This document shows positions 76-39,974 of a DNA stretch of 40,510 bases, one piece after another. The translations under genes were made by a program, and so were the position numbers. The notes under the pieces were generated by a model, which had not been told where the DNA came from, searched no databases, and saw nothing but the letters and a program-made list of their open reading frames with translations. Origin of the DNA: an uncultured Dehalococcoidia bacterium (lineage in GTDB: Bacteria > Chloroflexota > Dehalococcoidia > SZUA-161); NCBI GenBank assembly GCA_964353645.1, contig CAYGWR010000003.1:1-40510 (forward strand). Reading direction: 5' to 3'. Position 1 is the first letter of the stretch; each line of letters begins with the position of its first letter.

Positions 76-1923
76 ATGGGGACAAACAGGGGCAAGATAC
101 TGGACATAGACCTGAGCAGCGGCACTATTAAGACCACCAAGATAAAAGACGACGTGCTGCGAAAATTTATCGGAGGGGCTGGGCTGGCAGCAAAGCTATT
201 CCTTGACCGTGTCCCTCCCGACACCGATCCATTGTCCGCCAAGAACATCCTATTCCTTATGGGTGGCCCGTTGTCAGGAACCAACTTTCCCACATCATCA
301 CGCCTCCTCGCAGCCTTTAAGTCTCCCCAGACAGGTATCTGGGGGCAGGGCTCGGCCGGCGGAAACTTTGCCGCCGAAATGAAGAGAGCAGGCTACGATG
401 GAATTACTATATCAGGTGCTTCCAAGAAGCCTGTGTATATCGTGATAGAAGATGACAAGGTGGAGATTAAGGATGCATCCGACCTGTGGGGAAAGGACAC
501 TTATGAAACCGCGGATATTCTCAAGAAACGTCATGGCGCCAAAGCAGATGTGCTGGAGATAGGGCCTGCCGGGGAGAATCTGGTGAAGTTTGCCAACATA
601 ATGAACACGAAGTGGGGCTCGATTAGCCGCTGCGGCGGCGGTGCGGTGATGGGCTCCAAGAAGCTGAAAGCTATTGTCATCAGTGGCACGGGCAAAGTGA
701 CACCTGCCGTGCCGGAAGCGTTCGAGAGCGTGCGAAAGAGTGTTCTAAGTAAGATCAAGGAGAGTGTAGTCACGCAAGCCCTCACCGCCAGCGGTACCGC
801 GATGGGGCTAGAAGTAACTGCATTGACCGGCGTTCTACCGGTTAAGAATTTCACCGTGGGCGACGGTAGCTGGCTAGCCCCGCTGCTCGGCGGCAGCACG
901 ATAACCGCGAAATATCTTACCAAGCCGCATGCATGCTTCACCTGCCCTATAGCATGCAAGAGAACGGTGAAGGTAGCAGAGGGTCCCTATGCAATGGAAG
1001 AAGGGCCTGGACCCCAGTATGAGACAGTTGGCGCCTTCGGCTCTATGATGGTGATTGAAGACTTGGCAGCCGTCCTGAAAATGAGCGAGATGGCGGACCG
1101 ATATGGCATGGATAGCATTAGCTGCGGCGGCACCATTGCCTTTGCCATGGAATGCTTTGAGAAGGGGCTGATTAGCTCGAAGGAAGTAGGTGGTCAGTTG
1201 AGATGGGGCAATGCCGATGACGTTCTGGCAATGATGGAGAAGATAACACACCGCAAGGGCTTCGGCAATGTACTGGCGGAGGGCAGTCGAAGTGTCGCTA
1301 AGAAGATAGGCAAGAATGCAGCAGATTATACAGTAGAGATTAAAGGCCTCGAGTTCGCTTTGTACGATTCACGGGGGTCCCATGGTCATGGCCTCGGTTT
1401 CATGATGTCAAACCGCGGCGCCTGTCACGTCGCATCCGAGATAGGCAAGATCGAATCGGGCTGGACCACCTGGCCGGACATTGGTATAACAGGCGGCTAC
1501 GACCCCATGGCGGACGAGGGCAAAGGTGAGCTTAACTTCATATGCGAAAACGTAGCAATGCTGTCGAATTCAGTAACAATGTGCCAGTTCGGCCTTATGT
1601 CCATGACCGTTACCGAGCTCGCCGAGGCGCTGAAGGCCGCCACCGGTTTTGACTACGACCTCAAGGAACTCATGGAATGCGGTGAGCGCATCTGGATGAT
1701 TCAAAGGGGACTGAACAATCTCATGGGGATTACAGCCGCAGATGACCGAATGCCGAAGCGGATTATGACTCCTCACACGGATGGTGCTGCTGCGGGCTCA
1801 GTGCCCAATGTAAAACTCATGCTGAAAGACTACTACAAGGCAAGGGGCCTGGATGCCAAGGGTCGTCCGTTGAAGAAAAAACTGGAAAGCTTGGGCCTGT
1901 CCGAGCTTGCCGCCAAGTTATAA
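76..1923 (+). CDS. aor: Aldehyde:ferredoxin oxidoreductase family protein (W/Mo-pterin, 4Fe-4S)
   Basis: 615 aa. Family motifs FIGGAGLAAK, GAVMGSKKLKAI, CFTCPIAC, GPQYET, DRYGMD, RGACH, DYYKARG. GGAGGAGG RBS upstream of ATG. Confidence 0.95.
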   Translation: MGTNRGKILDIDLSSGTIKTTKIKDDVLRKFIGGAGLAAKLFLDRVPPDTDPLSAKNILFLMGGPLSGTNFPTSSRLLAAFKSPQTGIWGQGSAGGNFAAEMKRAGYDGITISGASKKPVYIVIEDDKVEIKDASDLWGKDTYETADILKKRHGAKADVLEIGPAGENLVKFANIMNTKWGSISRCGGGAVMGSKKLKAIVISGTGKVTPAVPEAFESVRKSVLSKIKESVVTQALTASGTAMGLEVTALTGVLPVKNFTVGDGSWLAPLLGGSTITAKYLTKPHACFTCPIACKRTVKVAEGPYAMEEGPGPQYETVGAFGSMMVIEDLAAVLKMSEMADRYGMDSISCGGTIAFAMECFEKGLISSKEVGGQLRWGNADDVLAMMEKITHRKGFGNVLAEGSRSVAKKIGKNAADYTVEIKGLEFALYDSRGSHGHGLGFMMSNRGACHVASEIGKIESGWTTWPDIGITGGYDPMADEGKGELNFICENVAMLSNSVTMCQFGLMSMTVTELAEALKAATGFDYDLKELMECGERIWMIQRGLNNLMGITAADDRMPKRIMTPHTDGAAAGSVPNVKLMLKDYYKARGLDAKGRPLKKKLESLGLSELAAKL

Positions 1924-1958
1924 AGATAGCCCTGGAAATCCCTGCCCTCCTTGAGTCA

Positions 1959-1989
1959 AGTACCTCCCCACTTGCAGTGGGGAGGTACT
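1959..1989. terminator. Perfect GC-rich hairpin after aor (terminator-like or REP-like)
   Basis: AGTACCTCCCCACT-TGC-AGTGGGGAGGTACT, 14 bp perfect stem. No U-tract follows, so intrinsic termination is uncertain. Confidence 0.5.
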
Positions 1990-2081
1990 GCTATCGGGAA
2001 CAGGCTCCTGCTAGCAATGACGAGCCAAATGCGATAATATCATGCTGTTCTAAACCTGGAGCCGCTATTGGAGCAAAATAG

Positions 2082-2801
2082 ATGCTTAGTAAACGAGAGC
2101 TAGCGCGATACAAGAGGCAGATACTGATCCCCGAGTGGACACAGTCAGGGCAGGAGAATCTCAAAAAGGCGAGGATACTGGTCGCTGGCGCAGGAGGACT
2201 TGGCTCAGCTATACTGACCTATCTGGCTGTTGCTGGTGTAGGCAAGATAAGAGTTATCGATGGAGACATAGTGGAACTGAGTAACTTGAACCGTCAGGTG
2301 CTGCATTCAGATAAGGACATAGGGAGATCTAAAGTGGATTCGGCTAAAGAGAAGCTCGAGGCGCTGAATCCAGATATAAGTGTAGAGGCTATAAAGGAGA
2401 TTATCACCAAAGATAACGTTTTCGAGCTGGTAGGGGATTATCCTATCGTTGATGCTATGGATAATCTCCCTACAAGGCTTCTGCTGAACAGGGTTGCCGT
2501 CAAGAAAAACCTTCCTTTGTTTCACGGAGCAGTCTACGGTTTCGAGGGTAGGGCCACCACAGTAATCCCAGGCAAGACAGCATGCCTGAGATGTTTATAC
2601 CAGGGCGTTATACAGGGCAAGACCCCAGTGGTCGGTGTCACCCCTGCAGTCATTGGCTGTATTCAGGCTACCGAAGTAATTAAGTATATCCTGGGCATAG
2701 GCGAATTGCTCGCAGACAGGCTCTTGATTTATGATGGGCTCAGTATGAACTTCAGTGAAGTCAAGCTGAAAAAAGACCCAAATTGCTCTGAGTGTAAGTA
2801 A
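2082..2801 (+). CDS. HesA/MoeB/ThiF family adenylyltransferase (E1-like)
   Basis: RYKRQI, GAGGLGS, VELSNLNRQ, DAMDN and two Zn-binding CxxC motifs (CLRC, CSEC). No rhodanese domain. Confidence 0.93.
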   Translation: MLSKRELARYKRQILIPEWTQSGQENLKKARILVAGAGGLGSAILTYLAVAGVGKIRVIDGDIVELSNLNRQVLHSDKDIGRSKVDSAKEKLEALNPDISVEAIKEIITKDNVFELVGDYPIVDAMDNLPTRLLLNRVAVKKNLPLFHGAVYGFEGRATTVIPGKTACLRCLYQGVIQGKTPVVGVTPAVIGCIQATEVIKYILGIGELLADRLLIYDGLSMNFSEVKLKKDPNCSECK

Positions 2802-2829
2802 TGTGGAAGATTGCGGTCAGGGACTAAAG

Positions 2830-3102
2830 ATGAGCGTCACCATAAAAATATCCTCGCTATTTCGCAAATTTACCGATGGGCAAGAGTTCGTGAAGGTAAC
2901 AGGAAATAGCCCTGTAGAATGCCTCCATGAATTGAAAGCTCGATTCCCGAAAATTAAGCGATGGCTATATGACAAGCAGGGCAATCTACGGCCCCAGGTC
3001 TGGTTTTTCGTTAATGGGCAAAAAATCTCGGCCGACGACATGGCTAAGCCGCTGAACGATGGCGACGAGCTCTTCTTCGTGCTCGCTATCAGCGGCGGAT
3101 AA
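2830..3102 (+). CDS. MoaD/ThiS family ubiquitin-like sulfur carrier
   Basis: About 90 aa beta-grasp pattern with FVNG, LNDGDEL and C-terminal SGG. Start moved from the GTG at 2803 to the ATG at 2830. Confidence 0.92.
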   Translation: MSVTIKISSLFRKFTDGQEFVKVTGNSPVECLHELKARFPKIKRWLYDKQGNLRPQVWFFVNGQKISADDMAKPLNDGDELFFVLAISGG

Positions 3103-3198
3103 GTCAGTATACGCAATAGTTCTAACATGCGGTTTTAAAAACCATACGTCCCCCATTATGTTGTCATAACACTACATAAAAATATGGGGTTCTCTCCA

Positions 3199-3228
3199 TT
3201 GACACCCCCAGCACTGTGCAGTAAGAAT
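3199..3228 (+). promoter_or_regulatory. Putative sigma70 promoter for the flavoprotein operon
   Basis: Perfect TTGACA at 3199-3204, 18 nt spacer, AAGAAT at 3223-3228, within a 380 bp intergenic region. Confidence 0.5.
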
Positions 3229-3483: not shown

Positions 3484-5211
3484 ATGGGCAAGGATGAGAG
3501 ATACGATATTATCATCATAGGTGGAGGCCCCAACGGGATGACAGCAGCAGCCTATCTGGCTAAATGCGGCCTGAGCGTATGTGTGCTGGAGGAGCGGGTT
3601 GAGTGCGGTGGGGCTTGCGAGACAGTGGAACCTATCCCTGGGGTGCGCATCTATCCTCACGCCATGCTTATGTATGCGGCACCAGCCCCAGGCTTCGAGC
3701 AGTTGGAGTTGCACAAGTACGGCTTTCGCATGACCTGGAATCCGGTGGATGTGATGAAATCGCTGGCCGCAGGCAGCACGACTACCGAAGGAGTGGTACC
3801 CATCACTGAAAAGGACATGATGGGCTTCGCCAAGTTGGGCGGCCTGCTCGGACAGCCTCCGTTCACCAAGGAGCTTATGCGCGCGACATTCTGGTGTCCC
3901 CCGCACCCACCTGACATGGAGGTAACAGACGAGAACACACCCTATATGCAGGTTTACAAGAAATACCAGCCGGACGTCTGGACACACGAGCTGCGCGAGT
4001 GGACTATGTTCGACCTCATGGACGAATACTTTGAGAGCGAGCCTTTCAAGGTAACTGTGGCTTTCGCGGCTTGGGCATCGGGGGCTGCCGGCCACTGGGA
4101 GGGCGTGGCTATTCCCGCTTTACTCTGTGACCAGCTCCTCATCATGCCCAACACTGGCAAGCTGAGCGCTCCCCGAGGCGGCCTGCATGGCTATTTCCAT
4201 GCCATCCATCGCTGCGCGGTAGCTCAAGGCGCGGTGGTGCGCACCTGCTGCCCTGTGGACGAAATAATAGTCCAGGACGGGCGGGCTGTGGGGGTGCGAT
4301 TGAGGGAAACCGCTGCGATTGGTGGCAGGAAGATCTGGGCTAACAAGGCAGTGATAGCGGCAATTGACTACATGCAGACCTTTATCAAGATGCTAGGAAG
4401 GGAGCATCTTGATCCCGGCTTTATCCAGAAGGTTAAGGACATCAGTCTGAAGAATGGTACCCTCTATGTTTCCACCTTCCACACCCGCAAACCTATCCAG
4501 TGGAATACCAAATTCAAGGCGATGGTTGAAAATGAGGTCGGTGTAGCCGGACCCAACAAGATTCCCTTTGGCGGTGTATACCCGTCCGACTCTAGAGAGC
4601 TTTACTACGAGAACGTAGCTGATTGCGACGCCCGCAAGACTAACCCCAGCTTGCCTCCAGAGAAGCTGATGTGGTTTCTGACACCATCACAGGCATTCAA
4701 TCCCACGGATTGCCAGGGCTACTATCCCAACGGGCATATCTCGGCTGCCTTTGAGGTGAATGTACCTGTTCCGGAGTATCAGGTCGAAGGCGTCGATGCT
4801 CAGGACAAGGAAAAAGCCAAGCTTGATGCCTACATGCGCAAGGCGTTCAGCCAGGCGCTAGAAGGTCTTGAAGACAATAACATACTTCATCACTGGTCAG
4901 CCACAGGTCGCGAGGTAGAGTTCCGCAACACCGGCCTTATCGGAGGCACCTGGTGCGGCTCCCGTCACTGCAGTGACCAGTCCTGGACGCGGCGTCCCAT
5001 ACCGGAGTTGGCTCGCTACCGCACCCCTATTGAGGGGCTCTATACCTGCCACCAGACGACAGGGCATCCCGGGGCACTCTGCCTCATGGCCATACCCTAT
5101 AACCTGATGCACGTACTCATCGAGGACGGGATTGCCGAACCGGGCACGTGGTGGTATCCGTCGCCGTATTACATACCACAGCAGGACAAGATATCAGCGA
5201 TACCTCGCTGA
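3484..5211 (+). CDS. NAD(P)/FAD-dependent oxidoreductase, phytoene dehydrogenase-like (COG1233), copy 1
   Basis: YDIIIIGGGPNG...VLEER...GGAC dinucleotide-binding start and C-terminal RYRTPIEGLY. AAGGAGG RBS. Confidence 0.92.
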   Translation: MGKDERYDIIIIGGGPNGMTAAAYLAKCGLSVCVLEERVECGGACETVEPIPGVRIYPHAMLMYAAPAPGFEQLELHKYGFRMTWNPVDVMKSLAAGSTTTEGVVPITEKDMMGFAKLGGLLGQPPFTKELMRATFWCPPHPPDMEVTDENTPYMQVYKKYQPDVWTHELREWTMFDLMDEYFESEPFKVTVAFAAWASGAAGHWEGVAIPALLCDQLLIMPNTGKLSAPRGGLHGYFHAIHRCAVAQGAVVRTCCPVDEIIVQDGRAVGVRLRETAAIGGRKIWANKAVIAAIDYMQTFIKMLGREHLDPGFIQKVKDISLKNGTLYVSTFHTRKPIQWNTKFKAMVENEVGVAGPNKIPFGGVYPSDSRELYYENVADCDARKTNPSLPPEKLMWFLTPSQAFNPTDCQGYYPNGHISAAFEVNVPVPEYQVEGVDAQDKEKAKLDAYMRKAFSQALEGLEDNNILHHWSATGREVEFRNTGLIGGTWCGSRHCSDQSWTRRPIPELARYRTPIEGLYTCHQTTGHPGALCLMAIPYNLMHVLIEDGIAEPGTWWYPSPYYIPQQDKISAIPR

Positions 5212-9231: not shown

Positions 9232-10449
9232 TTGAGTAAAAAAAAAGAGGGTGCCCTGAGTGTATACCGTATCTTAGACCTAGCCGATAGCTGGGGTGCT
9301 TACTGCACGAAGTTGCTCGCAGACCTAGGGGCTGATGTCATCAAGATCGAGAGCCCCGAGGGAGACCCCGGACGCACGATTGCCCCCTTTGTGGATGACA
9401 TTCCCCATTCCGAGAAAAGCCTCTACTTCCTGCATCGTAACGCTGGCAAGCGGGGTATAACCCTTAACCTGGAGACCTCCGACGGCAGAGATATCTTCCT
9501 AAAACTGGTTAAGACAGCCGATGTAGTGGTAGACAATTCACCGGCCGATTATATGGCAGGATTGGGTCTTGACTACCCTGCGCTGCGCAATATAAACCCC
9601 TCCCTTATCATGGCCAGCATCACCGAATTCGGCCACTCCGGCCCATACAAAAACCGCAAAGGCTCCAACCTTGTTGACTTCGCCATGAGCGGCGTCATGA
9701 TAACCAGCGGCTACCCCGGGAAAGAGCCCTGCCTGTGTCCAGGTTCGCCAGCATACGATGCAGCGTCGCTACACGCCAATGTAGCGATACTGGCTGCCCT
9801 CTATATGCGTGGCACTACGGGGCAGGGGCAATATATTGACATATCGGTGCACGAGACATCGCGCCTGGGGCTATATCCCTGGATAGTGCCAAATTATTCG
9901 TATGCCCTAAACCCTGAGGGGCCGCCACCGACTACAGAGACGCGAATGGGGGCATCCATCTACCCCGTCTACCCCTGTAAGGATGGCCTGATTAGGGTGG
10001 TTGCCCTGACCCCTCGGCAATGGGATGCCCTTGTTCGCGTTCTAGGCAGTCCCGAGGTGCTTCAGATGCCCGATTGGCGCAGCTTTATGTACCGCATCGG
10101 CAATGCCGATGACCTTTATGCCCTCGTGCTGGAATTCACCCAGAAATATACCATGACCGAGCTCTTTGAAGCTGGGAAGCGAGAGGGAGTCCCCATCGCT
10201 CCCATCTTGAATATAGAGAGTTTTTACAAAAGCCCGCAGACCAGAGCTAGAAAGTACTTCGTCGAGGTTGAACATCCCGTTGCCGGCAAGGCCGACTATC
10301 CGGGCCCGCCGTACAAGTGGACAGAAACACCAGCAGAGATAAGACGCCCCGCCCCCTGTTTGGGCGAACACAACGTCGAAATCTACTGCAAGGAACTCGG
10401 TTTATCGAAGAATGACCTGGTGGCCTTCAGAGGTGCCGGGGTATTGTAG
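9232..10449 (+). CDS. Family III (CaiB/BaiF) CoA-transferase, subunit 1 (BbsE-like, probably non-catalytic)
   Basis: RILDLA...LADLGADVIKIE...GDPGR, NAGKRGITLNL, GQGQYIDIS, APCLGEHN. TTG start after GAGG. Confidence 0.92.
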   Translation: MSKKKEGALSVYRILDLADSWGAYCTKLLADLGADVIKIESPEGDPGRTIAPFVDDIPHSEKSLYFLHRNAGKRGITLNLETSDGRDIFLKLVKTADVVVDNSPADYMAGLGLDYPALRNINPSLIMASITEFGHSGPYKNRKGSNLVDFAMSGVMITSGYPGKEPCLCPGSPAYDAASLHANVAILAALYMRGTTGQGQYIDISVHETSRLGLYPWIVPNYSYALNPEGPPPTTETRMGASIYPVYPCKDGLIRVVALTPRQWDALVRVLGSPEVLQMPDWRSFMYRIGNADDLYALVLEFTQKYTMTELFEAGKREGVPIAPILNIESFYKSPQTRARKYFVEVEHPVAGKADYPGPPYKWTETPAEIRRPAPCLGEHNVEIYCKELGLSKNDLVAFRGAGVL

Positions 10450-10462
10450 CAAGGAGGTCGCA

Positions 10463-11695: not shown

Positions 11696-11728
11696 ATAAA
11701 TAGGTAAATAATGAAAGGGAGGCAAACC

Positions 11729-21827: not shown

Positions 21828-21879
21828 CAAGGCCCAAGGGGGAAGTTGGATTGACAGCAGAACAGAAAAGGAGTCACAT

Positions 21880-24758: not shown

Positions 24759-25229
24759 ATGTCGACAGTTACTGAGAAGCTGGAAGGAATGGATGTCTGG
24801 ATTTATCACGGGCAGATATATATCCCGAATGCCTACGCTGCCGGTGGCGTGGGGAGCCAATTCCTCATCGCACTGAGAGATAAGAAAAAGATTATGGGCA
24901 CGAGATGCCCCACTTGCAATCGTGTCTATGCACCTGCCAGGTCGGTCTGCAAAGATTGCTTCGGTCAGTTGGATGAATGGGTGGAGGTGAGTAACAAGGG
25001 CACTGTGCTTACTTACACTGTTTGCCACCAGCCAAATCGCGTGCAGCCAATGGAACCTCCTATTGTCTACGGGATAATCCAACTGGATGGTGCAGACACA
25101 GGTTTCGTCCATATGCTGGGTGAGGTTGACCCCGAGCAACTAAGGGTCGGCATGAGGGTTCAAGCAGTTTTCAAGGAGAAGCGTGAGGCCAGCATTCTGG
25201 ATATTAAATACTTTAAACCGCTGGCTTGA
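24759..25229 (+). CDS. DUF35 Zn-ribbon/OB-fold protein
   Basis: RCPTC..VYAP...CKDC, GTVLTYT, IQLDGAD, GMRVQAVF, DIKYF. Confidence 0.92.
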   Translation: MSTVTEKLEGMDVWIYHGQIYIPNAYAAGGVGSQFLIALRDKKKIMGTRCPTCNRVYAPARSVCKDCFGQLDEWVEVSNKGTVLTYTVCHQPNRVQPMEPPIVYGIIQLDGADTGFVHMLGEVDPEQLRVGMRVQAVFKEKREASILDIKYFKPLA

Positions 25230-25266
25230 TGAGTCTCCGGTAATCACAAGTCATTTGAGGTCTTTA

Positions 25267-26742: not shown

Positions 26743-26756
26743 CCAGGAGGTCACGA

Positions 26757-28953: not shown

Positions 28954-30186
28954 ATGGCGATGTTCGACCAGTATCTTGCCCGAAGGTATCGGACAACGGT
29001 GAGGCCGAGACCTGCGGATTACAAAATCAAGGATAACGTTGCTATCGTGGGAATAGGGGCAACAGCCTTCTCCAAGGATTCCGGCAGAAGCGAGTGCCAG
29101 CAGGCGTGCGAGGCTATAAAAGCAGCGGTTGATGATGCAGGGCTGAAAATCGAAGAAATAGACGGCCTGGTTAAGTTCGCCATGGACTACACTGATGAGA
29201 TGCATATTATCAGCGCCCTGGGAATCCCCAGGCTGAACTACTTCGGTGAGTGTGGCTGGGGCGGGGGCGCTTCCTGCGCCACCATCGTACATGCAGCGAC
29301 GGCAGTAGCCGCAGGTGCAGCCAAATATGTGGTCTGCTACCGAGGCATGAATGAGCGCTCCGGACGCCGCTACGGTCGCATACCGGGGGTGGAGCAGGTG
29401 ATGATCTCGCCCAACGACCACTATGGATCGATAATGCCCTACGGCTTCGCTACCCCACCGTCGTGGGTGGCCATGTTCGCAACCAGATATATGCATGAGT
29501 TTGGTGCTACCAGCGACCAGCTAGGTACGATCTGTGTCGTTTTAAGAGAGTATGCATGCCGGAACCCCAAGGCATTGTTTTACGGTAAGCCGATTACGCT
29601 CGAAGACTACAGAGCAGCCCGGATGATTGTCGAACCGCTGCGACTTTTCGATTGCTGCGTTGATACCGATGGAGCCGTAGCAATCATCGTAACCAGCACC
29701 GAAAGGGCGAAAGACCTCAAGCAGAGACCAGCTATAATCCTGGGTGCAACTCAGGGCATTGCCACCCAGGGGGAGATGATGACAAGTGTCTACCGACCCA
29801 GGATATCCGGGCTCCCGGAAGCATGGTATGCGGCGCAGGAACTCTGGAGGGTGTCGGGCGTAACACCTAAGGACATAGATGTCGCACAGTTCTACGATGC
29901 CTTCAGCCCTTTGATTCCTATGCAGTTGGAAGAATACGGTTTCTGCGGCGTAGGCGAAGGTGCGGCTTTCTGCGCAGGAGGCGATCGTATCAGGTTGGGA
30001 GGAGAGATTCCCTGCAACACCTCAGGGGGCCACCTCTCAGAGGCATATCTCCATGGCATGAATCTAATCGCAGAGGCAGTGCGGCAGATTAGGGGCACTT
30101 CCACTTCCCAGGTAAAAGATGCAGAGCTGAGCCTTGTCACCGGCGGGCTTGGTGTCCCCACCAGCGCCCTTGTTCTAAGGAGGTAA
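28954..30186 (+). CDS. Ltp2-like retro-aldolase (thiolase superfamily)
   Basis: AIVGIGATAFSKDSGRSE, GGGASCAT, YRGMNERSG, LFDCC, FYDAF, GHLSEAYLHGMN, AVRQIRGTS, GVPTSALVL. Confidence 0.9.
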   Translation: MAMFDQYLARRYRTTVRPRPADYKIKDNVAIVGIGATAFSKDSGRSECQQACEAIKAAVDDAGLKIEEIDGLVKFAMDYTDEMHIISALGIPRLNYFGECGWGGGASCATIVHAATAVAAGAAKYVVCYRGMNERSGRRYGRIPGVEQVMISPNDHYGSIMPYGFATPPSWVAMFATRYMHEFGATSDQLGTICVVLREYACRNPKALFYGKPITLEDYRAARMIVEPLRLFDCCVDTDGAVAIIVTSTERAKDLKQRPAIILGATQGIATQGEMMTSVYRPRISGLPEAWYAAQELWRVSGVTPKDIDVAQFYDAFSPLIPMQLEEYGFCGVGEGAAFCAGGDRIRLGGEIPCNTSGGHLSEAYLHGMNLIAEAVRQIRGTSTSQVKDAELSLVTGGLGVPTSALVLRR

Positions 30187-30189: not shown

Positions 30190-30618
30190 ATGGTTATGGA
30201 ATATAGCCCAGCAATCCCCCTTCTACGTCCCCACATTGATCTCGACGACCAGGGATTCTGGGAGGCCGTTAAGCAGCACAAGCTTGTCTTCCAGAAGTGC
30301 AAGAGCTGCGGCTTACTTGTGCACAGGCCGCGACCTATGTGCCCCAGGTGCAACTCGATGAAGAAGGAATGGGCGCCTTCCTCGGGCAAGGGCACGATAT
30401 ATAGCTGGGTCAATTTCGTCTATGCCAATGCGGCATACCCGGGGATAAAGATCCCCTACCTTGTAGTGGTTGTGGAGATGCAAGAGGGAGTGCGCATGAT
30501 CAGCAATATGCACGGCGTGAAGAGAGAGGACATCTATATCGGGATGCCGGTGGAAGTGGTTTTCGATGACATAGCAGATGATTTGACCCTTCCCAAATTC
30601 AAGAGAAGGGAAGTTTAA
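30190..30618 (+). CDS. DUF35 Zn-ribbon/OB-fold protein (ChsH2 C-terminal-like)
   Basis: FWEA...LVFQKCKSC...PRPMCPRC, GKGTIYSW, EGVRMISN, IGMPVEVVF, LTLPKF. Confidence 0.93.
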   Translation: MVMEYSPAIPLLRPHIDLDDQGFWEAVKQHKLVFQKCKSCGLLVHRPRPMCPRCNSMKKEWAPSSGKGTIYSWVNFVYANAAYPGIKIPYLVVVVEMQEGVRMISNMHGVKREDIYIGMPVEVVFDDIADDLTLPKFKRREV

Positions 30619-30637: not shown

Positions 30638-31819
30638 ATGACTATAATGAGAAGTATCAAGAATAAGGCGGCTATCGTCGGTATCGGGATGAGCGGCTTC
30701 TCCAAGGATTCCCAGCGAACCGAGCTATATATTGCCTGCGAGACCATAAAAGCAGCGCTGGATGATGCAGGATTAACTACAGCCGACATAGATGGCTTGG
30801 TTAAGCAGACCGACGATGCCTCCGATGAACATGCCATTACCAGTTCCATGGGGATGGGGAATCTAACCTACTTCGGCGAGTGCCGCTGGGGCGCAGCGCC
30901 CAGTGCCATGGTTATGCGTGCCGCCATGGGGGTTGCTGCAGGAGTTGCCAACTACATCGTCATCTTCAGGGCTGTGAATGGCTCATCCAAGAGGCGAATG
31001 ATTCCCAGTATGCGTAGCTCAGGTCAGATGTCTACATCTGACCTGCTCCAGTGGACATTCCACGCCCCCTTCGGACACATGTCCGAGGCCGGGCGTGTCG
31101 CCATGATTGTACGCCGGTACATGCATGAGTTCAGTATCAACAACAACCAGTTCGGTTGGGTGCCCGTAGTATGCAGGGAACACGGCGCCAAGAACCAGGC
31201 TAGCATGTTCTACAAGAAGCCGATTACCATCAATGACTATCTTAAATCAGAGATGGTTGTAGACCCTCTTAGAAGGCTGGACTGCTATGAGGAGGCAGAT
31301 GCCGCTGCTGCTCTGGTCATTACCACTGCAGAGAGAGCCAAAGACCTGAGGCAGCGAGCGGTCTACGTGCTGGGAGCCGCTCAGAACATGGTGCCTGAAA
31401 CCGAGGAACTGCATTCATACTATCGTCCGTCTATCTCAAGTCTTCCAGAGATGGTACAATTGAGGAAGACGGTTTTCGCTATGGCTGGCGTAACCCCCAG
31501 GGAAATAGATTGCGTTCAACTCGATGATTCATACGGGCCTTTCGTCCCCATGCAGTTGGAGGCATTGGGATTCTGCGGTCGGGGCGAAGGGGTGGCCTTC
31601 TGCGACGGTGGGGCCCGCATAAAGGTAGGAGGGGAGCTACCCCTCAACACCTCAGGCGGCTCGCTGGGCGAGGGGCATATACACGGCATGAACCATGTCA
31701 TTGAGGCTGTGCGTCAGATAAGAGGCACGTCAACAGCCCAGGTCAAGGATGCCAGGTTGGTGCTGGTTGCCTCTGGGGCAGGTGGCCCGGCCAGTAGCCT
31801 CATTCTAGGAGGTAAATGA
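30638..31819 (+). CDS. Second Ltp2-like protein (divergent active site)
   Basis: AAIVGIG...FSKDS, LRRLDC, QLDDSY, NTSGGSLGEGHIHGMN, AVRQIRGTS. Confidence 0.88.
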   Translation: MTIMRSIKNKAAIVGIGMSGFSKDSQRTELYIACETIKAALDDAGLTTADIDGLVKQTDDASDEHAITSSMGMGNLTYFGECRWGAAPSAMVMRAAMGVAAGVANYIVIFRAVNGSSKRRMIPSMRSSGQMSTSDLLQWTFHAPFGHMSEAGRVAMIVRRYMHEFSINNNQFGWVPVVCREHGAKNQASMFYKKPITINDYLKSEMVVDPLRRLDCYEEADAAAALVITTAERAKDLRQRAVYVLGAAQNMVPETEELHSYYRPSISSLPEMVQLRKTVFAMAGVTPREIDCVQLDDSYGPFVPMQLEALGFCGRGEGVAFCDGGARIKVGGELPLNTSGGSLGEGHIHGMNHVIEAVRQIRGTSTAQVKDARLVLVASGAGGPASSLILGGK

Positions 31820-32238
31820 TGAGCGTGGCTTACGATAAGGAACATCCTATACCCATGCCTCCCATTCTTTGGGACAATATGGGTTTTTGGGAAGGTGTTA
31901 AAAGGCATGAGCTAGTCTTCCAGAAGTGTAAGCAGTGCGGCACCTGGCTCCACCCACCCAGGCCGGTTTGCCCTAAGTGTCGTTCCCTGGAAAAAGAATG
32001 GGCTCCTTCTAAGGGGAGAGGGACTATTTACAGTTGGGTCACCTATCGAGAGTCGCCACACCCTGCTTTCAAAGCCCCGTATTCAGTAGTGCTGGTGGAG
32101 TTGGATGAAGGAGTGCGGCTGGTGAGCAATATGGTTGATGTAAAGCCAGATGAAATATTTATCGGTATGCCCGTAGAAGTGGCCTTCGACGATATATCAG
32201 AGGGTTTGACCCTGCCCAAGTTCAGAAAGGTAGGTTAG
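31816..32238 (+). CDS. DUF35 Zn-ribbon/OB-fold protein
   Basis: FWEG...LVFQKCKQC...PPRPVCPKC, GTIYSW, EGVRLVSN, IGMPVEVAF. Paralog of 30190..30618. Start is 31816 or 31819. Confidence 0.93.
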   Translation: MMSVAYDKEHPIPMPPILWDNMGFWEGVKRHELVFQKCKQCGTWLHPPRPVCPKCRSLEKEWAPSKGRGTIYSWVTYRESPHPAFKAPYSVVLVELDEGVRLVSNMVDVKPDEIFIGMPVEVAFDDISEGLTLPKFRKVG

Positions 32239-32241: not shown

Positions 32242-33375
32242 ATGGACTTCGCCCCTAGTGAAGAGCAGGAGATGCTGAAGAAATCGGCAAGAGATTTTCT
32301 CAGCGTGGAGTGCCCCAAGAAAGTAGTGAGGGAGATAGAGGCCGGCGACCTGGGCTATTCTCCTGAGCTGTGGAAGAAGATGGCATCACTGGGCTGGATG
32401 GGGCTGGCGCTGCCTGAGGAGTACGGTGGAGCCGGGCTTAGCCTGCTCGACATGGCAGTGCTGTTTGAGGAGTTCGGACGCGCTGCAATGACCGAACCCA
32501 TGTTCAGTACCGTTGTGCTGGGAGCACTCCCCATTCTGCAATGGGGAACTGAGGAACAGAAAAAGGCATTCCTGCCTAAAGTGGCAACTGGTAAGCTTTT
32601 CCTGACCATGGCGCTGGCAGAGCCAAGTGTAAACGAGGACCCCATGTTCGTCACCACTCGCGCCATGACAAAAGATGATGGCTTCCTAATCCACGGCACT
32701 AAGCTCTTTGTTCCCTACGCTCATATCGCAGACTATCTTCTCGTGGTGGCAAGAACAAAGGGAGTCGCCGGCGATAAAAAAGGTGTCACTGTTTTCATCG
32801 TTGATAGAAAGGCTCAGGGTATCAACATCACTCCGCTGGTAACCATCGCCGCCGACAAGCAGTTCGAGGTTCAGTTCGATAAGGTATTTGTTTCGTCTAA
32901 AAACATACTCGGAAGCCTGCATAACGGTCTCCCTCTGGTTAGAGAGACGCTCAAGAAGGCTACAGCAATACAATGCGCTGAGATGGTGGGCGTGGCACAG
33001 CAAGAAATGGAGATGACAGCCGAGCATACCAAGAATCGAGTACAGTTTGGGCGCCCTATCGGCACCTTCCAGGCCGTGCAGCACCGCCTGGCCGATATGT
33101 TCATCGATGTCAACGGGGCTCGTTGGACTACATATCAAGCGGTGTGGCGCCTGAGCGAGGGCCTCCCGGCTGACCGTGAGGTGGCCATCGCCAAAGCATT
33201 CGCTAACATCGCCTGCCAGCGGGTTGCTTTCAGTGCCCAGCAACTACACGGCGGCGTCGGCGTTGACAAAGACTATGACCTTCATTTCTATTTCCGTCGT
33301 GCCAAGGCTTTTGCATTAACCCTTGGCAGCACACCTTTCCATTTAAAGGCAATCGAGGCAGAAATAAGTGGTTAG
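32242..33375 (+). CDS. Acyl-CoA dehydrogenase, non-catalytic partner type (FadE27/FadE28-like)
   Basis: LGWMGLALPEEYGG, GTKLFVP, RVQFGRPIGTFQAVQHRLAD, QQLHGGVG. No Glu at either catalytic position; shortened C-terminus LTLGSTPFHL. Confidence 0.92.
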   Translation: MDFAPSEEQEMLKKSARDFLSVECPKKVVREIEAGDLGYSPELWKKMASLGWMGLALPEEYGGAGLSLLDMAVLFEEFGRAAMTEPMFSTVVLGALPILQWGTEEQKKAFLPKVATGKLFLTMALAEPSVNEDPMFVTTRAMTKDDGFLIHGTKLFVPYAHIADYLLVVARTKGVAGDKKGVTVFIVDRKAQGINITPLVTIAADKQFEVQFDKVFVSSKNILGSLHNGLPLVRETLKKATAIQCAEMVGVAQQEMEMTAEHTKNRVQFGRPIGTFQAVQHRLADMFIDVNGARWTTYQAVWRLSEGLPADREVAIAKAFANIACQRVAFSAQQLHGGVGVDKDYDLHFYFRRAKAFALTLGSTPFHLKAIEAEISG

Positions 33376-33431: not shown

Positions 33432-34235
33432 ATGTTAGTCGGAGGCTGTGACGTAGGTTCAGCTACGGGCAAGGCCGTTATAATGAGGAATGCGGAAGTC
33501 ATCTCGTATGAGATCATACCGTCCACAACCAAGCCCGAGGTGACGGCACGGACGGTTATGGATAAGGCCGTGGAGAAGGCCGGCCTATCATCAATCGCAG
33601 ACCTTGATTACATCGTTGGCACAGGATACGGAAGGCTCAAGGTTCCTTTCGCCAACGAGAACATCTCGGAGATCACATGCCACGCCCGAGGTGCGCAATG
33701 GCTCTTACCTACCGTTAGAACGGTGGTGGATATAGGAGGGCAGGACTGCAAGGTGATGTCGCTTGGGGAGAACGGCAAAGTGCTGGAATTCGTTATGAAC
33801 GACCGGTGTGCTGCTGGGACAGGCAGATTCTTTGAAGCCATGGCGAGGGTTCTCGACTGCGGACTTCAAGGGCTGTCAGAACTGGCGCTCCAAGGCAAGA
33901 ACCCTGCAACCATCTCCAGCCAGTGCAGCGTGTTCGCCGAGTCGGAGGTAGTAACCCTGGTCAATGAGGGCATGGAGCTGTCCGACATCGTAGCAGGTCT
34001 CCATGCTTCAATAGCCAGCAGACTGAACTCAATGGTGCGAAAGGTAGGATTGGTCGAGGACGTAGTGCTCACCGGGGGATGTGCGAAGAACGACGGCCTG
34101 GCCAAGGCACTTGAAGACAAGCTCGGTGTGACCGTCAAGAAGCTATCCCTCGACCCGCAGATCGCGGGGGCAATTGGAGCTGCGCTGATTGCTGCAGAAA
34201 GAGTAAGCAAGCAGCGCATGAAGAGCCCTGCCTGA
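33432..34235 (+). CDS. ASKHA-family ATP-dependent electron-transfer activator (HgdC/BcrAD-like)
   Basis: GCDVGSATGK, TGYGR, SEITCHARG, DIGGQDCK, MNDRCAAGTGRF, CSVFAESEV, TGGCAKN. Confidence 0.95.
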   Translation: MLVGGCDVGSATGKAVIMRNAEVISYEIIPSTTKPEVTARTVMDKAVEKAGLSSIADLDYIVGTGYGRLKVPFANENISEITCHARGAQWLLPTVRTVVDIGGQDCKVMSLGENGKVLEFVMNDRCAAGTGRFFEAMARVLDCGLQGLSELALQGKNPATISSQCSVFAESEVVTLVNEGMELSDIVAGLHASIASRLNSMVRKVGLVEDVVLTGGCAKNDGLAKALEDKLGVTVKKLSLDPQIAGAIGAALIAAERVSKQRMKSPA

Positions 34236-36761: not shown

Positions 36762-36786
36762 ATAACCAATGGGAAAATAGTCAGTC

Positions 36787-36832: not shown

Positions 36833-36869
36833 TTAGATTCAAGCTAAACGTTATGGCCGAGGAATTCGA

Positions 36870-37667
36870 TTGATGTCTGTCTTCGATGCCTACATAAGAA
36901 AGGTAGCCGGGTACATTGAAGTAATGCAAAGCGGCGGCAGGCAGGTCAGGGTTTTCGATTGCCCCGGTGATCCGGAAAGATTGCTAGGGGGGCTGCCTGT
37001 AAGGGTTGGGCCCGGGGCAGGCTCGGGAATAGTCCTGCGTGGAGACACCTTTGCCGAGCTTGGCAGTCCCGAAGCCGGTTCCTGTGCCTTTCCCCTTTGG
37101 ACCAACAATACCGAGCTTGTCAGAGACGGCAGGATAACCCTTATCGGCCCGGATATCCTCGAATCCCGAGGAGAAAGCTTACCCTTTGGCCAAATCCTCA
37201 TAGCGGCAGGGGGGAAACTCAGCGACAAACAGCACTCTGCACTGGACGAAAGTCAATATATTTCCGATCAGATTGAAGGCTACATGGTAAAGAGCACGCC
37301 GGGGTGCATGTGGACGAGAATAAGCAACCACGCTGCAGAGAGGGGGCTCGGCTTCGAAGCACTGGGAAAGGCACTTATGGCCATCTACAAGTCCCATGTA
37401 TCCCAGATAGAGGCGATGGAGATCGTTTTCGTCACCTCGGGCAAAGAAGATGTGCGACGGCTGGACGAAATCGCAGAGCAGGTAAAGAAAATAAGCAAGG
37501 ATATCATCAGGGAAACATGGCTGGCCAGAGGCTACGACATCCTTGAATGCACCCTGGGCTGGGATTGCGAGTCTTGCCTTGATAAACCTGTGTGCGATGA
37601 CATCAAGACAGTGATAACCGTGCGCAAGAAGAAATCCGGCAAGCCTCAAGCTTCAACTAAGAAGTAA
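36870..37667 (+). CDS. Truncated acetyl-CoA synthase (AcsB/CdhC)-like protein with a C-terminal 4-Cys motif
   Basis: ELGSP...DGRITLIGPDI...LPFG...IEGYM...WTRIS..A...G.GF..LG..L...YK...IEAMEIVFVT resembles the ACS middle domain. Ends with CTLGWDCESCLDKPVC. No A-cluster domain. Confidence 0.7.
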   Translation: MMSVFDAYIRKVAGYIEVMQSGGRQVRVFDCPGDPERLLGGLPVRVGPGAGSGIVLRGDTFAELGSPEAGSCAFPLWTNNTELVRDGRITLIGPDILESRGESLPFGQILIAAGGKLSDKQHSALDESQYISDQIEGYMVKSTPGCMWTRISNHAAERGLGFEALGKALMAIYKSHVSQIEAMEIVFVTSGKEDVRRLDEIAEQVKKISKDIIRETWLARGYDILECTLGWDCESCLDKPVCDDIKTVITVRKKKSGKPQASTKK

Positions 37668-37730
37668 TTATATAAACAGGGCCACTGTCAAAGACTCGCA
37701 GCTTAAATAAATAGATAGGTGTTAGTATTG

Positions 37731-38519
37731 ATGCCACAATCTCTTAGCCCCACCAAGAGGCTGGTCGCTGTATGTGGCAAGGGAGGCACTGGTAAAACAG
37801 CGCTCACTGCCATGATGACCAGAGTCCTGCTAGACAGCGGCAAGGCTGGCAAGCTGCTGCTCATCGACGCCGACCCGGCCATGGGCTTGCCTACCGCCCT
37901 GGGCATAAAAGTCAAACGAACTATGGGCCAGGTTCGCGAGGAGATAATCAAGACCGCCAGGGGCAGCGACAAGGAGAAAAAGACCAAGCTAGCCAGTATG
38001 CTTGATTATATGGTCTTGGAAGCCCTTTATGAAACAGACCATTTCGCCCTGCTGGCTATGGGGCGGACCGAAACTCTGGGCTGCTTCTGCCCGGTCAATG
38101 ACCTGCTGAGAGATGGAATAGAGACCCTTTCCAAAAGCTTCGATACCATCATCATCGATGGCGAAGCGGGCGTGGAACAAATTAACAGGCAGGTCATGCG
38201 CCACGTGGATACACTGGTCATCGTCAGCGATGCTACATCCAGAGGCATCCAAACCGCAGCCCTGATAAAGAAGATGGTGCAGGGCGATCGAGTGATACAA
38301 TGTGAAAAAGTAGGCCTGGTCTTCAACAGGGTTCAGGGCAACGAAGAGCTACTGAAACAAGCTGCGCAGGAGATGGGGCTGAATGTTTTTGGCTATATAC
38401 CGCAGGACGAAAATATAGCCTACTATGATCTGGTGGGCAAATCTATCCTCGAACTCCCCACAACATCACCTGCCCTTTCGGCAGTAAATAATGTCGTGGC
38501 AAACCACATCCTCGAATAG
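37731..38519 (+). CDS. CooC/AcsF-type MinD-family ATPase (Ni-insertion family)
   Basis: Deviant Walker A GKGGTGKT, LIDADP, LLAMGR...GCFCP (CxC), DGEAGVEQINR. Start is ATG 37731 or GTG 37719. Confidence 0.9.
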   Translation: MPQSLSPTKRLVAVCGKGGTGKTALTAMMTRVLLDSGKAGKLLLIDADPAMGLPTALGIKVKRTMGQVREEIIKTARGSDKEKKTKLASMLDYMVLEALYETDHFALLAMGRTETLGCFCPVNDLLRDGIETLSKSFDTIIIDGEAGVEQINRQVMRHVDTLVIVSDATSRGIQTAALIKKMVQGDRVIQCEKVGLVFNRVQGNEELLKQAAQEMGLNVFGYIPQDENIAYYDLVGKSILELPTTSPALSAVNNVVANHILE

Positions 38520-38525
38520 TGCCTT

Positions 38526-39974
38526 TTATGAAACGTCCTGCGCCCCAATCTCAGCTACGAACTTATGGTAGTCAACAAAGCGGTTCAGGGCGCGGCAGGC
38601 CTTACGCAGTGAATTATAGACTGTTACCCCGGCTTCCCTCAGTTGCTGCGCATACTTTTCAGTATCATGAACCTGCCCCTCCTCCGACAAGGCTACAACC
38701 ACCGGCTTGATCGAGTGTTTTTCTTGTGCAGAACCCGAGATACGTTTATGTAGCTCACCCATCGCACCAACCATCGGCCCCGCAAAGAACTCAGCTCCCA
38801 GATGCAACATTATAATATCTATTTGAGGGTCAGCGGCCAGCAGCTCATAGGTTCGCTGCAGAGAGGAAATATCCATAACCACGCTGGGCACATCTATGGG
38901 ATTCGCCACACCCTGGTTCACCAGAGAAATAAACTCAAGCAGCCCTTGTCTGGTATTCTCCGAGAGTGCTGGCAACTCAATCCCCTCATCAGCACAGATA
39001 TCTCCGGTGGCTACGCTGCTGCCCCCGCCAGCCACCAAAACAGCAGCACGTTTACCCTGCGATGGCTTCAAACGGAGAAGGGTCATAGTTATCTCACCCA
39101 TCTCTTCAATCGAATTAACCTCTATCGCCCCTGTCTGCTTGAAGAATGCCCCCCAGATTTGTCTATTCCCTGCCAGTGAACCGGTGTGTGAAACCGCTGC
39201 CCTGGCGCCTGAGCTTGTAAGACCGCCCTTCCAGATAACAACGGGCTTCACTGGATTTATCCCGCTCACCAACTCCCTAAGTCTCCTGCCATCCTTAACG
39301 CCCTCCAGATACATACATATAATTTGGGTTTCCGGGTCATTGGCAAGGTACTCAAGAAAGTCAGGAGCATCCATCAAGAGCGCGTTTCCGTAGCTTATCA
39401 CCTTGCTGAAGCCGAAGCCGAGCTCCGGGCCACGTATCAGGTATATGCGCGCATGGCCCCCGCTTTGAGAAACAAAAGCCACTGGCCCCCGGACAGGCGG
39501 CGTGTCTGCATGCATCTGCATATTGATTGAAGGTATCTGGAAGCCCAGGCAGTTCGGGCCTATGACCCTGAGGTCTTCCTTCAATGCTATCTGTTTTATC
39601 TGGTTCTCCAACTCCTCTCCCTCGGCCTGCCCGGTTTCACCAAAGCCGGAGGTGCATATCTGCACATTGCGTACCTTTGCTGCCGCACAGTCTGCCACCA
39701 CTTGAGGAACCACCGCGGGAGGCACTGTAACTATGGCCAGGTCTAATAGCTCGGGGATGGAGGTTACACTGGGGTAGACTTTGATACCTTCGATAACGCT
39801 AGCATTAGGATTGACAGGGTATACTCGACCCTGGAAGCCTGCTTTCAGCAGAATACGAAGTAGCCCCACTCCCGTGTAGCCAGGATGGGGTGTGCTATCG
39901 CTCCTGGAGACGCCCACTATAGCAACAGTTTTAGGTGGGAAGCCCTCTCCAAAATTCCAACCTTGCTTCGCCAT
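38526..39974 (-). CDS. ADP-forming acyl-CoA synthetase alpha subunit (CoA-binding; AcdA-like), second copy
   Basis: PKTVAIVGVS, VYPVNP, TSGFGETG, IGPNCLG, SQSGG, SYGN, YLEG, VSHTGSLAG, NPIDV. Homology begins near MAKQGWNF, so the start was moved from 40349 to 39974. Confidence 0.9.
   Translation of the reverse strand: MAKQGWNFGEGFPPKTVAIVGVSRSDSTPHPGYTGVGLLRILLKAGFQGRVYPVNPNASVIEGIKVYPSVTSIPELLDLAIVTVPPAVVPQVVADCAAAKVRNVQICTSGFGETGQAEGEELENQIKQIALKEDLRVIGPNCLGFQIPSINMQMHADTPPVRGPVAFVSQSGGHARIYLIRGPELGFGFSKVISYGNALLMDAPDFLEYLANDPETQIICMYLEGVKDGRRLRELVSGINPVKPVVIWKGGLTSSGARAAVSHTGSLAGNRQIWGAFFKQTGAIEVNSIEEMGEITMTLLRLKPSQGKRAAVLVAGGGSSVATGDICADEGIELPALSENTRQGLLEFISLVNQGVANPIDVPSVVMDISSLQRTYELLAADPQIDIIMLHLGAEFFAGPMVGAMGELHKRISGSAQEKHSIKPVVVALSEEGQVHDTEKYAQQLREAGVTVYNSLRKACRALNRFVDYHKFVAEIGAQDVS

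Follow-up and report, generated by a model that had tools for sequence, protein, structure and literature searches.

Here, we describe an island of genes, about 38 kb long, from an uncultured Dehalococcoidia bacterium; it may encode an O2-independent route for the catabolism of a hydrophobic compound that is unsaturated and methyl-branched. The stretch analysed (40,510 bases; hereafter the window) is the entire contig C3 of a 1.84-Mb, 334-contig metagenome-assembled genome (MAG) that is 80% complete. A listing of open reading frames (ORFs) and scans against Pfam and NCBIfam gave 34 ORFs, 33 of them co-directional and one convergent, and 25 of the 33 intergenic gaps measure 60 bp or less (median 19 bp). 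Every gene family named in an earlier account of this DNA, made from its letters without database searches (the sequence-only reading), was recovered at its place on the plus strand, and no ORF matched an oxygenase family, as that account had said; its single co-directional cluster holds for 33 genes but not for the last, convergent one. The genes encode seven flavoproteins (F1 to F7), enzymes of alcohol and aldehyde oxidation and of CoA activation, a lower pathway of thiolase-fold proteins, acyl-CoA dehydrogenases (ACADs), hydratases and Ltp2-type proteins, and a five-gene radical-enzyme module (33432-38519) that was missing from the sequence-only list. Coordinates are collected in Table 1.

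All seven flavoproteins match NAD_binding_8, DAO and Amino_oxidase (Pfam), a CrtI/amine-oxidase fold with an N-terminal dinucleotide-binding motif. In the delta-24 steroid desaturase of Sterolibacterium denitrificans and in limonene dehydrogenase (CtmAB), flavin is bound covalently in both subunits, and the attachment site is a His near the N-terminus within G-F-L/R-X-N/S-T/L-H-A (PMC11061730). F3 reproduces this motif exactly and F4 and F6 nearly so, while F1 and F2 keep the His and little else. Among 153 flavoprotein homologues from all fetched loci, which served both for a motif survey and for a FastTree phylogeny rooted on F5 and F7, the His is kept in 11/11 sequences of the F1 class, 12/12 of F2, 19/20 of F3, 23/29 of F4 and 43/43 of F6, and in 0/15 of F5 and 0/23 of F7; the six F4-class exceptions carry Cys at this position. 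Pairwise BLAST and the tree resolve four clades, F1 (support 1.0), F2 with F6 (0.98), F3 with F4 (0.94) and F5 with F7. The seven COG1233 flavoproteins previously counted are thus all present, but only F1 to F4 and F6 carry the motif His, and F5 and F7 form a separate CrtI-like clade.

Putative partners share 24% (F1/F2), 28% (F3/F6) and 28% (F4/F6) identity in pairwise BLAST, in the range of CtmA and CtmB (27%; genes of 1698 and 1650 bp; PMC4109377) and of the desaturase subunits (26%; PMC11061730). Sizes are 61.5-65.8 kDa, against 63 and 57 kDa for the two desaturase subunits (PMC11061730). An F1-class neighbour lies within 400 bp of 9 of 10 F2-class genes, and 27 of the 43 F6-class genes have an F3- or F4-class gene within the same distance; in the window, other genes separate F6 from both F3 and F4. 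These features support a predicted assignment of F1 to F4 and F6 to the CtmAB/delta-24 desaturase type, encoded as alpha/beta-like pairs. In loci of Thermodesulfobacteriota/Syntrophaceae (L042-L046, L050), the partner of an F6-like protein has GF[IL]QNTCA in six sequences, and because Cys replaces the motif His, this suggests a different covalent flavin link, or none.

Public databases list the flavoproteins under no names but 'phytoene dehydrogenase-like' and 'NAD(P)/FAD-dependent oxidoreductase'. For F1 to F4 and F6, the CrtI-type ketolase CrtO is the top NCBIfam model (100-226 bits, far under cut-off), at least 120 homologues of F6 at 70-97% identity bear generic names only, and an ESM Atlas search with F3 returned generic cluster names. 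Among solved structures, F6 is closest to CrtI (4dgk, E 1.7e-10), F3 has weak matches (best 3ka7, E 3e-6), the relatives of F7 are CrtI-like and archaeal, and the copy searched held no CtmAB or desaturase structure.

The radical-enzyme module joins an HgdC/BcrAD-type activator and two HGD-D subunits to a protein resembling the N-terminal domain of acetyl-CoA synthase (ACS; CdhC-like) and a CooC-like ATPase. Solved relatives of one subunit, HgdB, are the benzoyl-CoA reductase BzdN (8s02_B, E 2e-51), then HadC, then a double-cubane-type 'dehydratase family protein' (6eno/7yyl), whereas the other, HgdA, is very divergent and barely recognisable. Models of 2-hydroxyacyl-CoA dehydratases fall far short (HadC 158 vs 700 bits, HadB 45 vs 750) while the activase model is above cut-off, and those of class I benzoyl-CoA reductases are missed as well (BzdN 179 vs 454 bits, BzdQ 197 vs 380). 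The CdhC-like protein follows the HGD-D genes in every locus examined; ESM Atlas gave only generic cluster names for it, and its AlphaFold model was poor (7 sequences, pLDDT 44.1, pTM 0.39). All five genes stand together in G005 and G017, genomes of the same and of another genus, and in 6/6 loci (L075-L080) of two other Dehalococcoidia families, three families of the class in all. The HGD-D, CdhC-like and CooC-like genes are also in order in 4/4 Binatia/'Deltaproteobacteria' loci (L069-L072), the activase side being outside those loci. No description of the combination of activase, HGD-D, ACS-N-like and CooC-like proteins was found in the literature searched.

In the lower pathway, the SCPx-type thiolase-fold proteins ThlA and ThlB had been labelled Ltp3 and Ltp4; this label is not specifically supported, because 'lipid-transfer protein' models score under the generic model PRK08313, which is best for both. 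A Cys in the aligned N-terminal glycine-rich stretch, which we take to be the thiolase nucleophile site, is present in ThlA and not in ThlB. All four DUF35 proteins have a Cys4 ribbon, and DUF35c and DUF35d each follow an Ltp2 gene. Support for the proposed module of Ltp2 and ChsH1/ChsH2 type comes from the closeness of Ltp2a and the MaoC pair to steroid side-chain enzymes of solved structure. With the steroid aldolase TcLtp2 (6ok1_A), Ltp2a aligns over 380 residues (E 1e-128, 433 bits), and the only solved matches of the first MaoC subunit are ChsH1 (4w78) and ChsH2 (4wnb), at E ~3.5e-27. The catalytic residues of Ltp2 are Tyr294, in a YDHF motif, and Tyr344 (PMC12329534). Ltp2a keeps both tyrosines and has Ala for His296 (motif YDAF). 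By alignment, Leu and His stand in Ltp2b in place of the catalytic tyrosines; since both are replaced, Ltp2b may be a non-catalytic partner of Ltp2a. The module lies between the two ACAD genes, whose products are 27% identical and score highest with the PimC-large, PimD-small, AcrC and IpdE2 models, all under cut-off; no protein in the five close genomes passed the IpdE2 cut-off.

Upstream, the tungsten-type aldehyde oxidoreductase (AOR) has AFOR_N and AFOR_C over its full length and misses the NCBIfam equivalog (205 vs 868 bits). Three kinds of CoA-activation enzyme had been claimed; transferases and synthetase-like proteins are indeed present, but ligase activity of the proteins resembling the alpha part of ADP-forming acyl-CoA synthetase (ACD) is not assured, because the window holds no ATP-grasp partner. 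At the position of the first ACD-like gene (25183-26742), G005 holds an extra F5/F7-like pair. In the second, the longest ORF begins with about 125 N-terminal residues without homology and CoA_binding_2 begins at residue 140; the likely start, judged from this, is Met126 (39974), which agrees with the end coordinate in the sequence-only reading. This gene is probably not part of the island, because its orthologue in G005 (75% identical) lies on the other side of it. Two further schemes for the acyl-CoA steps were dropped. Ketone carboxylation feeding ScoAB would call on an acetone-carboxylase-like Hydantoinase_B, which occurs in 2/5 close genomes and near the island in none, and for anaerobic alpha-oxidation via 2-hydroxyacyl-CoA and formyl-CoA there is no thiamine pyrophosphate (TPP)-dependent lyase in the window.

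Table 1. Features of the window, with positions in bases, strand and supporting details.
Feature	Position	Strand	Details
Tungsten-type AOR	76..1923	+	AFOR_N 268.6, AFOR_C 399.4 bits; 1aor E 4e-127
MoeB/ThiF-type adenylyltransferase	2082..2801	+	ThiF 252 bits; NCBIfam MoeB models 268 bits, under cut-offs
MoaD-like small sulfur carrier, 99 aa, GG end	2803..3102	+	TIGR01687 40.2 bits, cut-off 49.5
F1 flavoprotein, 575 aa, 64.1 kDa	3484..5211	+	motif GVRIYPHA; proposed F2 partner, gap 8 bp
F2 flavoprotein, 555 aa	5220..6887	+	motif CYSSNPHV; same clade as F6, 42% identical
F3 flavoprotein, 576 aa	6939..8669	+	GFRGNTHA, exact published covalent-flavin motif; 63% identical to F4
Family III CoA-transferase a	9232..10449	+	CoA_transf_3 322 bits; under all NCBIfam cut-offs
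Family III CoA-transferase b	10412..11695	+	31% identical to a; ORFs overlap
Zn-dependent alcohol dehydrogenase (Zn-ADH), class III-like	11711..12829	+	ADH_N, ADH_zinc_N; TIGR03989 365 bits, cut-off 440
F4 flavoprotein, 581 aa	12874..14619	+	motif GFRGNDHA
F5 CrtI-like flavoprotein, 490 aa	14681..16153	+	full-profile Amino_oxidase match; no His motif
3-oxoacid CoA-transferase A/B (ScoAB)	16210-17025, 17022-17705	+	TIGR02429 263, TIGR02428 275 bits, above cut-offs
F6 flavoprotein, 543 aa	17766..19397	+	motif DFFHNTHA; proposed partner of F3/F4
F7 CrtI-like flavoprotein, 494 aa	19779..21263	+	no His motif
Decayed enoyl-CoA hydratase gene	21290..21830	+	three-frame translation: in-frame stop, then frameshift; ECH_1 C-terminal fragment
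SCPx-type thiolase-fold ThlA, ThlB	21880-23025, 23026-24210	+	PRK08313 298 and 357 bits, cut-off 514
Two stand-alone DUF35 proteins	24222-24746, 24759-25229	+	each CxxC...CxxC
ACD alpha-like protein, no ATP-grasp domain	25183..26742	+	Pfam/NCBIfam scans
ACAD 1, PimC-large-like	26739..27935	+	Pfam, NCBIfam
Heteromeric MaoC-type hydratase pair	27976-28485, 28510-28941	+	FAS1_DH_region + MaoC_dehydratas, 24 bp apart
Ltp2a, Ltp2-type retro-aldolase	28954..30186	+	NF005892 551 bits, cut-off 469
DUF35c, stand-alone zinc-ribbon/OB partner	30190..30618	+	Pfam
Ltp2b, Ltp2 paralogue	30638..31819	+	50% identical to Ltp2a
DUF35d	31816..32238	+	Pfam
ACAD 2, PimD-small/IpdE2-like	32242..33375	+	Pfam, NCBIfam
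ATPase activator, HgdC/BcrAD type	33432..34235	+	TIGR00241 260 bits, cut-off 125
Two HGD-D subunits, dehydratase/aryl-CoA-reductase/double-cubane-type	34305-35453, 35457-36761	+	Pfam, NCBIfam
ACS N-terminal-like (CdhC-N-like) protein	36870..37667	+	four invariant C-terminal Cys
CooC/MinD-type ATPase	37719..38519	+	CxC motif at residues 122-124
Second ACD alpha-like protein	38526..40349	-	Pfam; convergent; likely start 39974

The tight packing of the genes is interrupted by three non-coding gaps of 381-562 bp (3103-3483, 8670-9231 and 19398-19778), which hold no Rfam family and no promoter or terminator signal above chance. Rfam gave no match at gathering scores anywhere in the window, and over bases 1-20000 both promoter-like sites (21 vs 16.0 +/- 3.4 expected) and terminator-like sites (18 vs 17.8 +/- 4.4 expected) occur at chance level.

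The whole island is syntenic in G005 (82-96% protein identity) and in G017, where the radical block is found on the opposite side of the AOR gene. We compared 16 Chloroflexota loci with an F6 orthologue at least 78% identical and at least 7 kb of downstream sequence, some of which share one MAG. Nine carry the thiolase/DUF35/ACAD/MaoC(/Ltp2) modules, three, from three MAGs, carry a shuffled variant (F6, ACADs, HGD-D genes, F3, MaoC, thiolase), and four carry neither. In most Dehalococcoidia loci ScoAB lies directly upstream of F6, or of F3-F6. A sample of 301 Dehalococcoidia genomes gave counts that are descriptive, since relatedness makes the genomes non-independent: 41 have F3-type genes (E <= 1e-60), and HgdA-type genes are found in 26 of these and in 0 of the 260 others. 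The stable core is the flavoproteins with the radical enzyme. Synteny, named as a check by the sequence-only reading, extends over two genera for the whole island, but the aldolase module joins the flavoproteins only in the window's own taxonomic order. In G032, a 2.8-Mb genome of the same order and another family, F3 has 36 matches at E <= 1e-20, mostly full-length (~550-580 aa), a paralogue family unusually large for so small a genome.

Relatives of these genes extend beyond the phylum. Binatia loci have the arrangement F4-F6-F1-F2-F1-F2-F5, with proteins 52-74% identical to those of the window, and in two Binatia genomes the HGD-D module adjoins the flavoprotein genes; judged from these sequences, the flavoprotein genes were likely transferred between phyla. 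In loci of Binatia/'Deltaproteobacteria' MAGs (L030, L031, L034, L037), flavoproteins stand beside a reductase of the old yellow enzyme type and an ATP-binding cassette (ABC) transporter of molybdate/tungstate type. Two Thermodesulfobacteriota loci have a distant flavoprotein pair directly upstream of a short-chain dehydrogenase/reductase, followed in one by an AOR and in the other by a Mo aldehyde oxidase, with UbiD/UbiX and PpsA-like genes nearby. The association of flavoprotein pair, alcohol dehydrogenase and aldehyde oxidoreductase on which the sequence-only reading was built recurs, in this form, in a second phylum.

The host reads as an obligately anaerobic, uncultured sediment bacterium. 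Neither haem-copper oxidase (COX1), cytochrome bd nor P450 was found in any of five close genomes, three of them at least 95% complete, and positive controls matched in control genomes; genes for electron-transfer flavoprotein are present in 5/5. In G005, one flank of the island carries formate-dehydrogenase-like, NuoF-like and methylenetetrahydrofolate reductase genes, and the other carries genes for a LuxR-type response regulator and for a histidine kinase with a PAS domain. Elsewhere in the window's genome, a KstD-type flavoprotein of 569 aa (C71:3225-4934, minus strand) matches 7p18_A (E 4.5e-115), a solved 3-oxosteroid 1-dehydrogenase that we take to be the Sterolibacterium enzyme AcmB. 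At least 57% of the words sampled from bases 12000-21900 were found in 20 of the 24 public runs listed, all 20 labelled as sediment or freshwater-sediment metagenomes; 18 of them carry near-identical DNA, and two are RNA libraries from one study. Contigs of the two RNA libraries cover 30/30 and 22/30 bins of bases 10000-29999, a weak hint that the island is expressed, and only weak because DNA carry-over into RNA libraries is not excluded.

We read the window as one conserved O2-independent catabolic island for an unsaturated, methyl-branched hydrophobic compound, for example a terpenoid or a sterol side chain, and give this reading an about even chance of being correct; gene content, motifs, synteny, co-occurrence and the absence of oxidases are observed, and from them we infer both the reactions and the substrate class. 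F1 with F2, and F3 or F4 with F6, would form two or three heteromeric flavoenzymes that oxidise allylic C-H bonds without O2, whether by desaturation, by water-dependent hydroxylation or by both. The Zn-ADH and the tungsten AOR would convert alcohol to acid, and the family III and family I CoA-transferases would make the thioester. A putatively heteromeric ACAD, the ChsH-like hydratase pair and the Ltp2a/DUF35 retro-aldolase would then release a C2 or C3 unit, the retro-aldol cleavage serving at a carbon for which oxidation to a ketone is impossible, while the SCPx-thiolase/DUF35 pair would act on a 3-oxoacyl-CoA. In a step linked to that of the flavoenzymes, the ATP-driven radical enzyme may carry out a demanding reduction or dehydration. 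Candidate substrates include sterol side chains. Overall, the sequence-only reading, which had drawn a similar route from methyl group to acyl-CoA and retro-aldol cleavage, is partly supported.

Several observations weigh against this interpretation. The motif match is poor in F1 (4/7 specified positions) and F2 (2/7), and the CtmAB-type assignment rests on motif, size and pairing, the tree being confined to the fetched homologues. It was argued in 2025 that limonene dehydrogenase requires an acceptor of positive potential and may fail in highly reduced systems (PMC12583861). The Pfam scans found no ferredoxin or reductase domain that could be a CtmEF-like electron partner among the 34 ORFs, and no molybdopterin oxidoreductase or Mo hydroxylase domain. 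The window also has no 3-hydroxyacyl-CoA dehydrogenase, no steroid-ring degradation module, and no transporter or regulator hinting at a substrate. Its enoyl-CoA hydratase gene, missing from the sequence-only list, is decayed, with an intact 279-aa gene at the same place in G005, and the Zn-ADH of G005 is split into ORFs of 214 and 149 aa. In G005 the KstD-like gene sits among non-steroid genes: MoeB/MoaD, Zn-ADH, carbon monoxide dehydrogenase, a TPP enzyme, a POR-type 2-oxoacid:ferredoxin oxidoreductase and an AMP-ligase. Ltp2a-type genes (E <= 1e-100) occur in 45 genomes, 11 within the F3-type 41 and 34 without. Finally, HgdB is nearest to a benzoyl-CoA reductase, and the ACADs lean toward PimC/PimD and AcrC models.

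Because of these last two likenesses, an aromatic or alicyclic substrate fits as well, and the main alternative is the degradation of alkyl-aromatics, lignin-derived phenylpropanoids or alicyclic acids, which we consider rather unlikely. The flavoenzymes would hydroxylate a benzylic or propenyl methyl group, alcohol dehydrogenase and AOR would form an aryl acid for the CoA-transferases to activate, and the HGD-D enzyme would be an ATP-dependent aryl-CoA or dienoyl-CoA reductase; ACADs, MaoC, thiolase and DUF35 proteins would degrade the side chain, or a ring-opened dicarboxylic chain, in a Bbs- or pimeloyl-CoA-like manner. HgdB does match BzdN ahead of HadC, the activase matches BzdQ (197 bits), and the ACADs resemble PimC-large and PimD-small, but the window has a single ATPase gene where class I reductases have two, the BzdN, BcrC and HadC equivalog cut-offs are all missed, and HgdA is barely recognisable. 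The benzoylsuccinyl-CoA thiolase 7pxp is matched by both ThlA and Ltp2a, yet Ltp2a scores 433 bits with the steroid aldolase and 95 bits with BbsB, and the MaoC subunit matches ChsH1 and ChsH2 only. The two adjacent family III CoA-transferases presumably resemble the BbsEF arrangement; no intact ring-hydrolase (BadI/Oah-type) or dienoyl-CoA hydratase is present in the window. From outside it, this alternative draws on the UbiD/UbiX and PpsA-like genes beside the Thermodesulfobacteriota flavoprotein pair, on the best 2014 database match of CtmB, a protein of the naphthalene degrader NaphS2 (PMC4109377), and on the enrichment by lignin of sediment Dehalococcoidia that carry bcr genes, in keeping with the published view of them as lignin-monomer degraders (PMC10116835).

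The island might instead be a mosaic, in which a mobile unit of flavoproteins and radical enzyme lies beside an independent unit for branched acyl-CoA beta-oxidation and the two serve separate pathways. Binatia loci share the flavoprotein and HGD-D genes (59-74% identity) and have no thiolase or Ltp2 within 10 kb, the radical module stands alone in 6/6 loci of families f39 and f51, and 34 genomes have Ltp2a-type genes and no flavoproteins. The HGD-D block has also switched sides between the window's genome (G000) and G017, but despite this rearrangement the units remain adjacent in both genera. The shuffled variant, moreover, interleaves the two units in three loci from three MAGs, gaps across the junctions are short, and ScoAB in most of the Dehalococcoidia loci immediately precedes F6 or F3-F6. 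A mosaic is on this evidence improbable.

Reductive use of the island would have RetSat-like flavoproteins and the HGD-D enzyme reduce conjugated C=C bonds of a polyene or isoprenoid as an electron sink. The flavoprotein family is greatly expanded, as in the 36 matches in G032, and large expansion is a pattern seen in respiratory reductase families; the hosts are strict anaerobes, and Wood-Ljungdahl genes adjoin the island in G005. The thermodynamic objection to allylic hydroxylation (PMC12583861) would favour it too, and a precedent exists in an Fe-S flavoenzyme that, with Ni chaperones, reduces isoprene anaerobically (PMC10134865). We nevertheless regard it as very improbable, since the linked alcohol dehydrogenase, AOR, CoA-transferases, ACADs and aldolase are an oxidative, carbon-harvesting set, the conserved His motif belongs to two characterised oxidising members, and the window has no respiratory or membrane-anchor genes.

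Beyond the catabolic island as read above, a more specific proposal is that strictly anaerobic sediment Dehalococcoidia, and Binatia through gene transfer, activate C-H bonds of isoprenoid or sterol side chains independently of both O2 and Mo, by several CtmAB-type covalent flavoenzymes acting jointly with a new ATP-driven metallo-radical enzyme formed by the five-gene module, its CooC-like protein serving as a maturase, and feeding Ltp2-type retro-aldol cleavage in the window's order; in this full form it is doubtful. If true, it would supply genes by which to ask whether, and in what way, sterol and terpenoid biomarkers degrade in anoxic sediments. The two characterised relatives of the flavoenzymes come from denitrifying Betaproteobacteria, and the island places this enzyme type, in many copies, in oxidase-free sediment bacteria and ties it to a conserved five-gene ATP-dependent radical-enzyme module. 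F3/F6, F1/F2, Ltp2a/DUF35c and the HGD-D module are direct candidates for enzymes that break down terpenoids, side chains of sterols or alkyl-aromatics without O2, a process that bears on carbon turnover in anoxic sediments and on biomarker preservation. Every enzyme family involved is known; the combination, the expansion in Dehalococcoidia and the five-gene module are not described in the literature searched, which included few subscription journals. The sequence-only reading had known of no described pathway with its combination of genes, a statement that needs qualification and is outdated as to COG1233 enzymes, because such an enzyme has been in print since 2024 for anaerobic steroid breakdown, in a denitrifier with Mo enzymes (Zhan et al., 2024, PMC11061730).

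Among known systems, the window shares with CtmAB of Castellaniella defragrans an adjacent COG1233 pair of about 27% identity with a conserved His in both subunits, and with the ctm/geo/mrc genes the succession of alcohol dehydrogenase, aldehyde oxidation, CoA activation and modified beta-oxidation (PMC4109377). Unlike the Ctm system, it lacks the CtmEF ferredoxin and reductase, has a tungsten AOR for the NAD-dependent aldehyde dehydrogenase and CoA-transferases for the ligase, and belongs to a strict anaerobe where Castellaniella is a denitrifier; instead of a single pair, it has five such subunits, likened to CtmAB by motif, size and pairing, and two CrtI-like proteins. An anaerobic benzene flavoprotein (PMC13416013) was considered as a relative and set aside as not relevant, being of the VAO/PCMH family.

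The delta-24 desaturase of Sterolibacterium denitrificans is likewise heteromeric, with about 60 kDa per subunit and the motif His, which there binds flavin mononucleotide (FMN) covalently, and it acts without O2 on the isoprenoid side chain of stigmasterol, together with S26DH2; alcohol dehydrogenase, aldehyde dehydrogenase, CoA activation and side-chain beta-oxidation with an aldolase follow, as proposed for the island (PMC11061730). Hydroxylation in Sterolibacterium is carried out by a molybdenum enzyme (C25/C26 dehydrogenases), a domain that the window lacks, and the two hosts differ in phylum and energy metabolism; the radical-enzyme module has no counterpart there.

The lower pathway resembles the actinobacterial igr module (ChsE, ChsH1-ChsH2, Ltp2) in joining ACAD, MaoC pair, Ltp2 and DUF35. 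Unlike igr, its DUF35 is free-standing and not the C-terminus of ChsH2, the ACAD genes stand at its two ends, Ltp2 is present as two paralogues, one without both tyrosines and the other, Ltp2a, with Ala at His296, and the host is an anaerobe with no Cyp125. The radical module has one HgdC-type ATPase and two HGD-D subunits, as 2-hydroxyacyl-CoA dehydratases do, and one ATPase gene where class I benzoyl-CoA reductase has two ATPase subunits. It differs from dehydratases, benzoyl-CoA reductases and double-cubane proteins alike in its highly divergent alpha-like subunit and in always including an ACS-N-like protein and a CooC-like ATPase.

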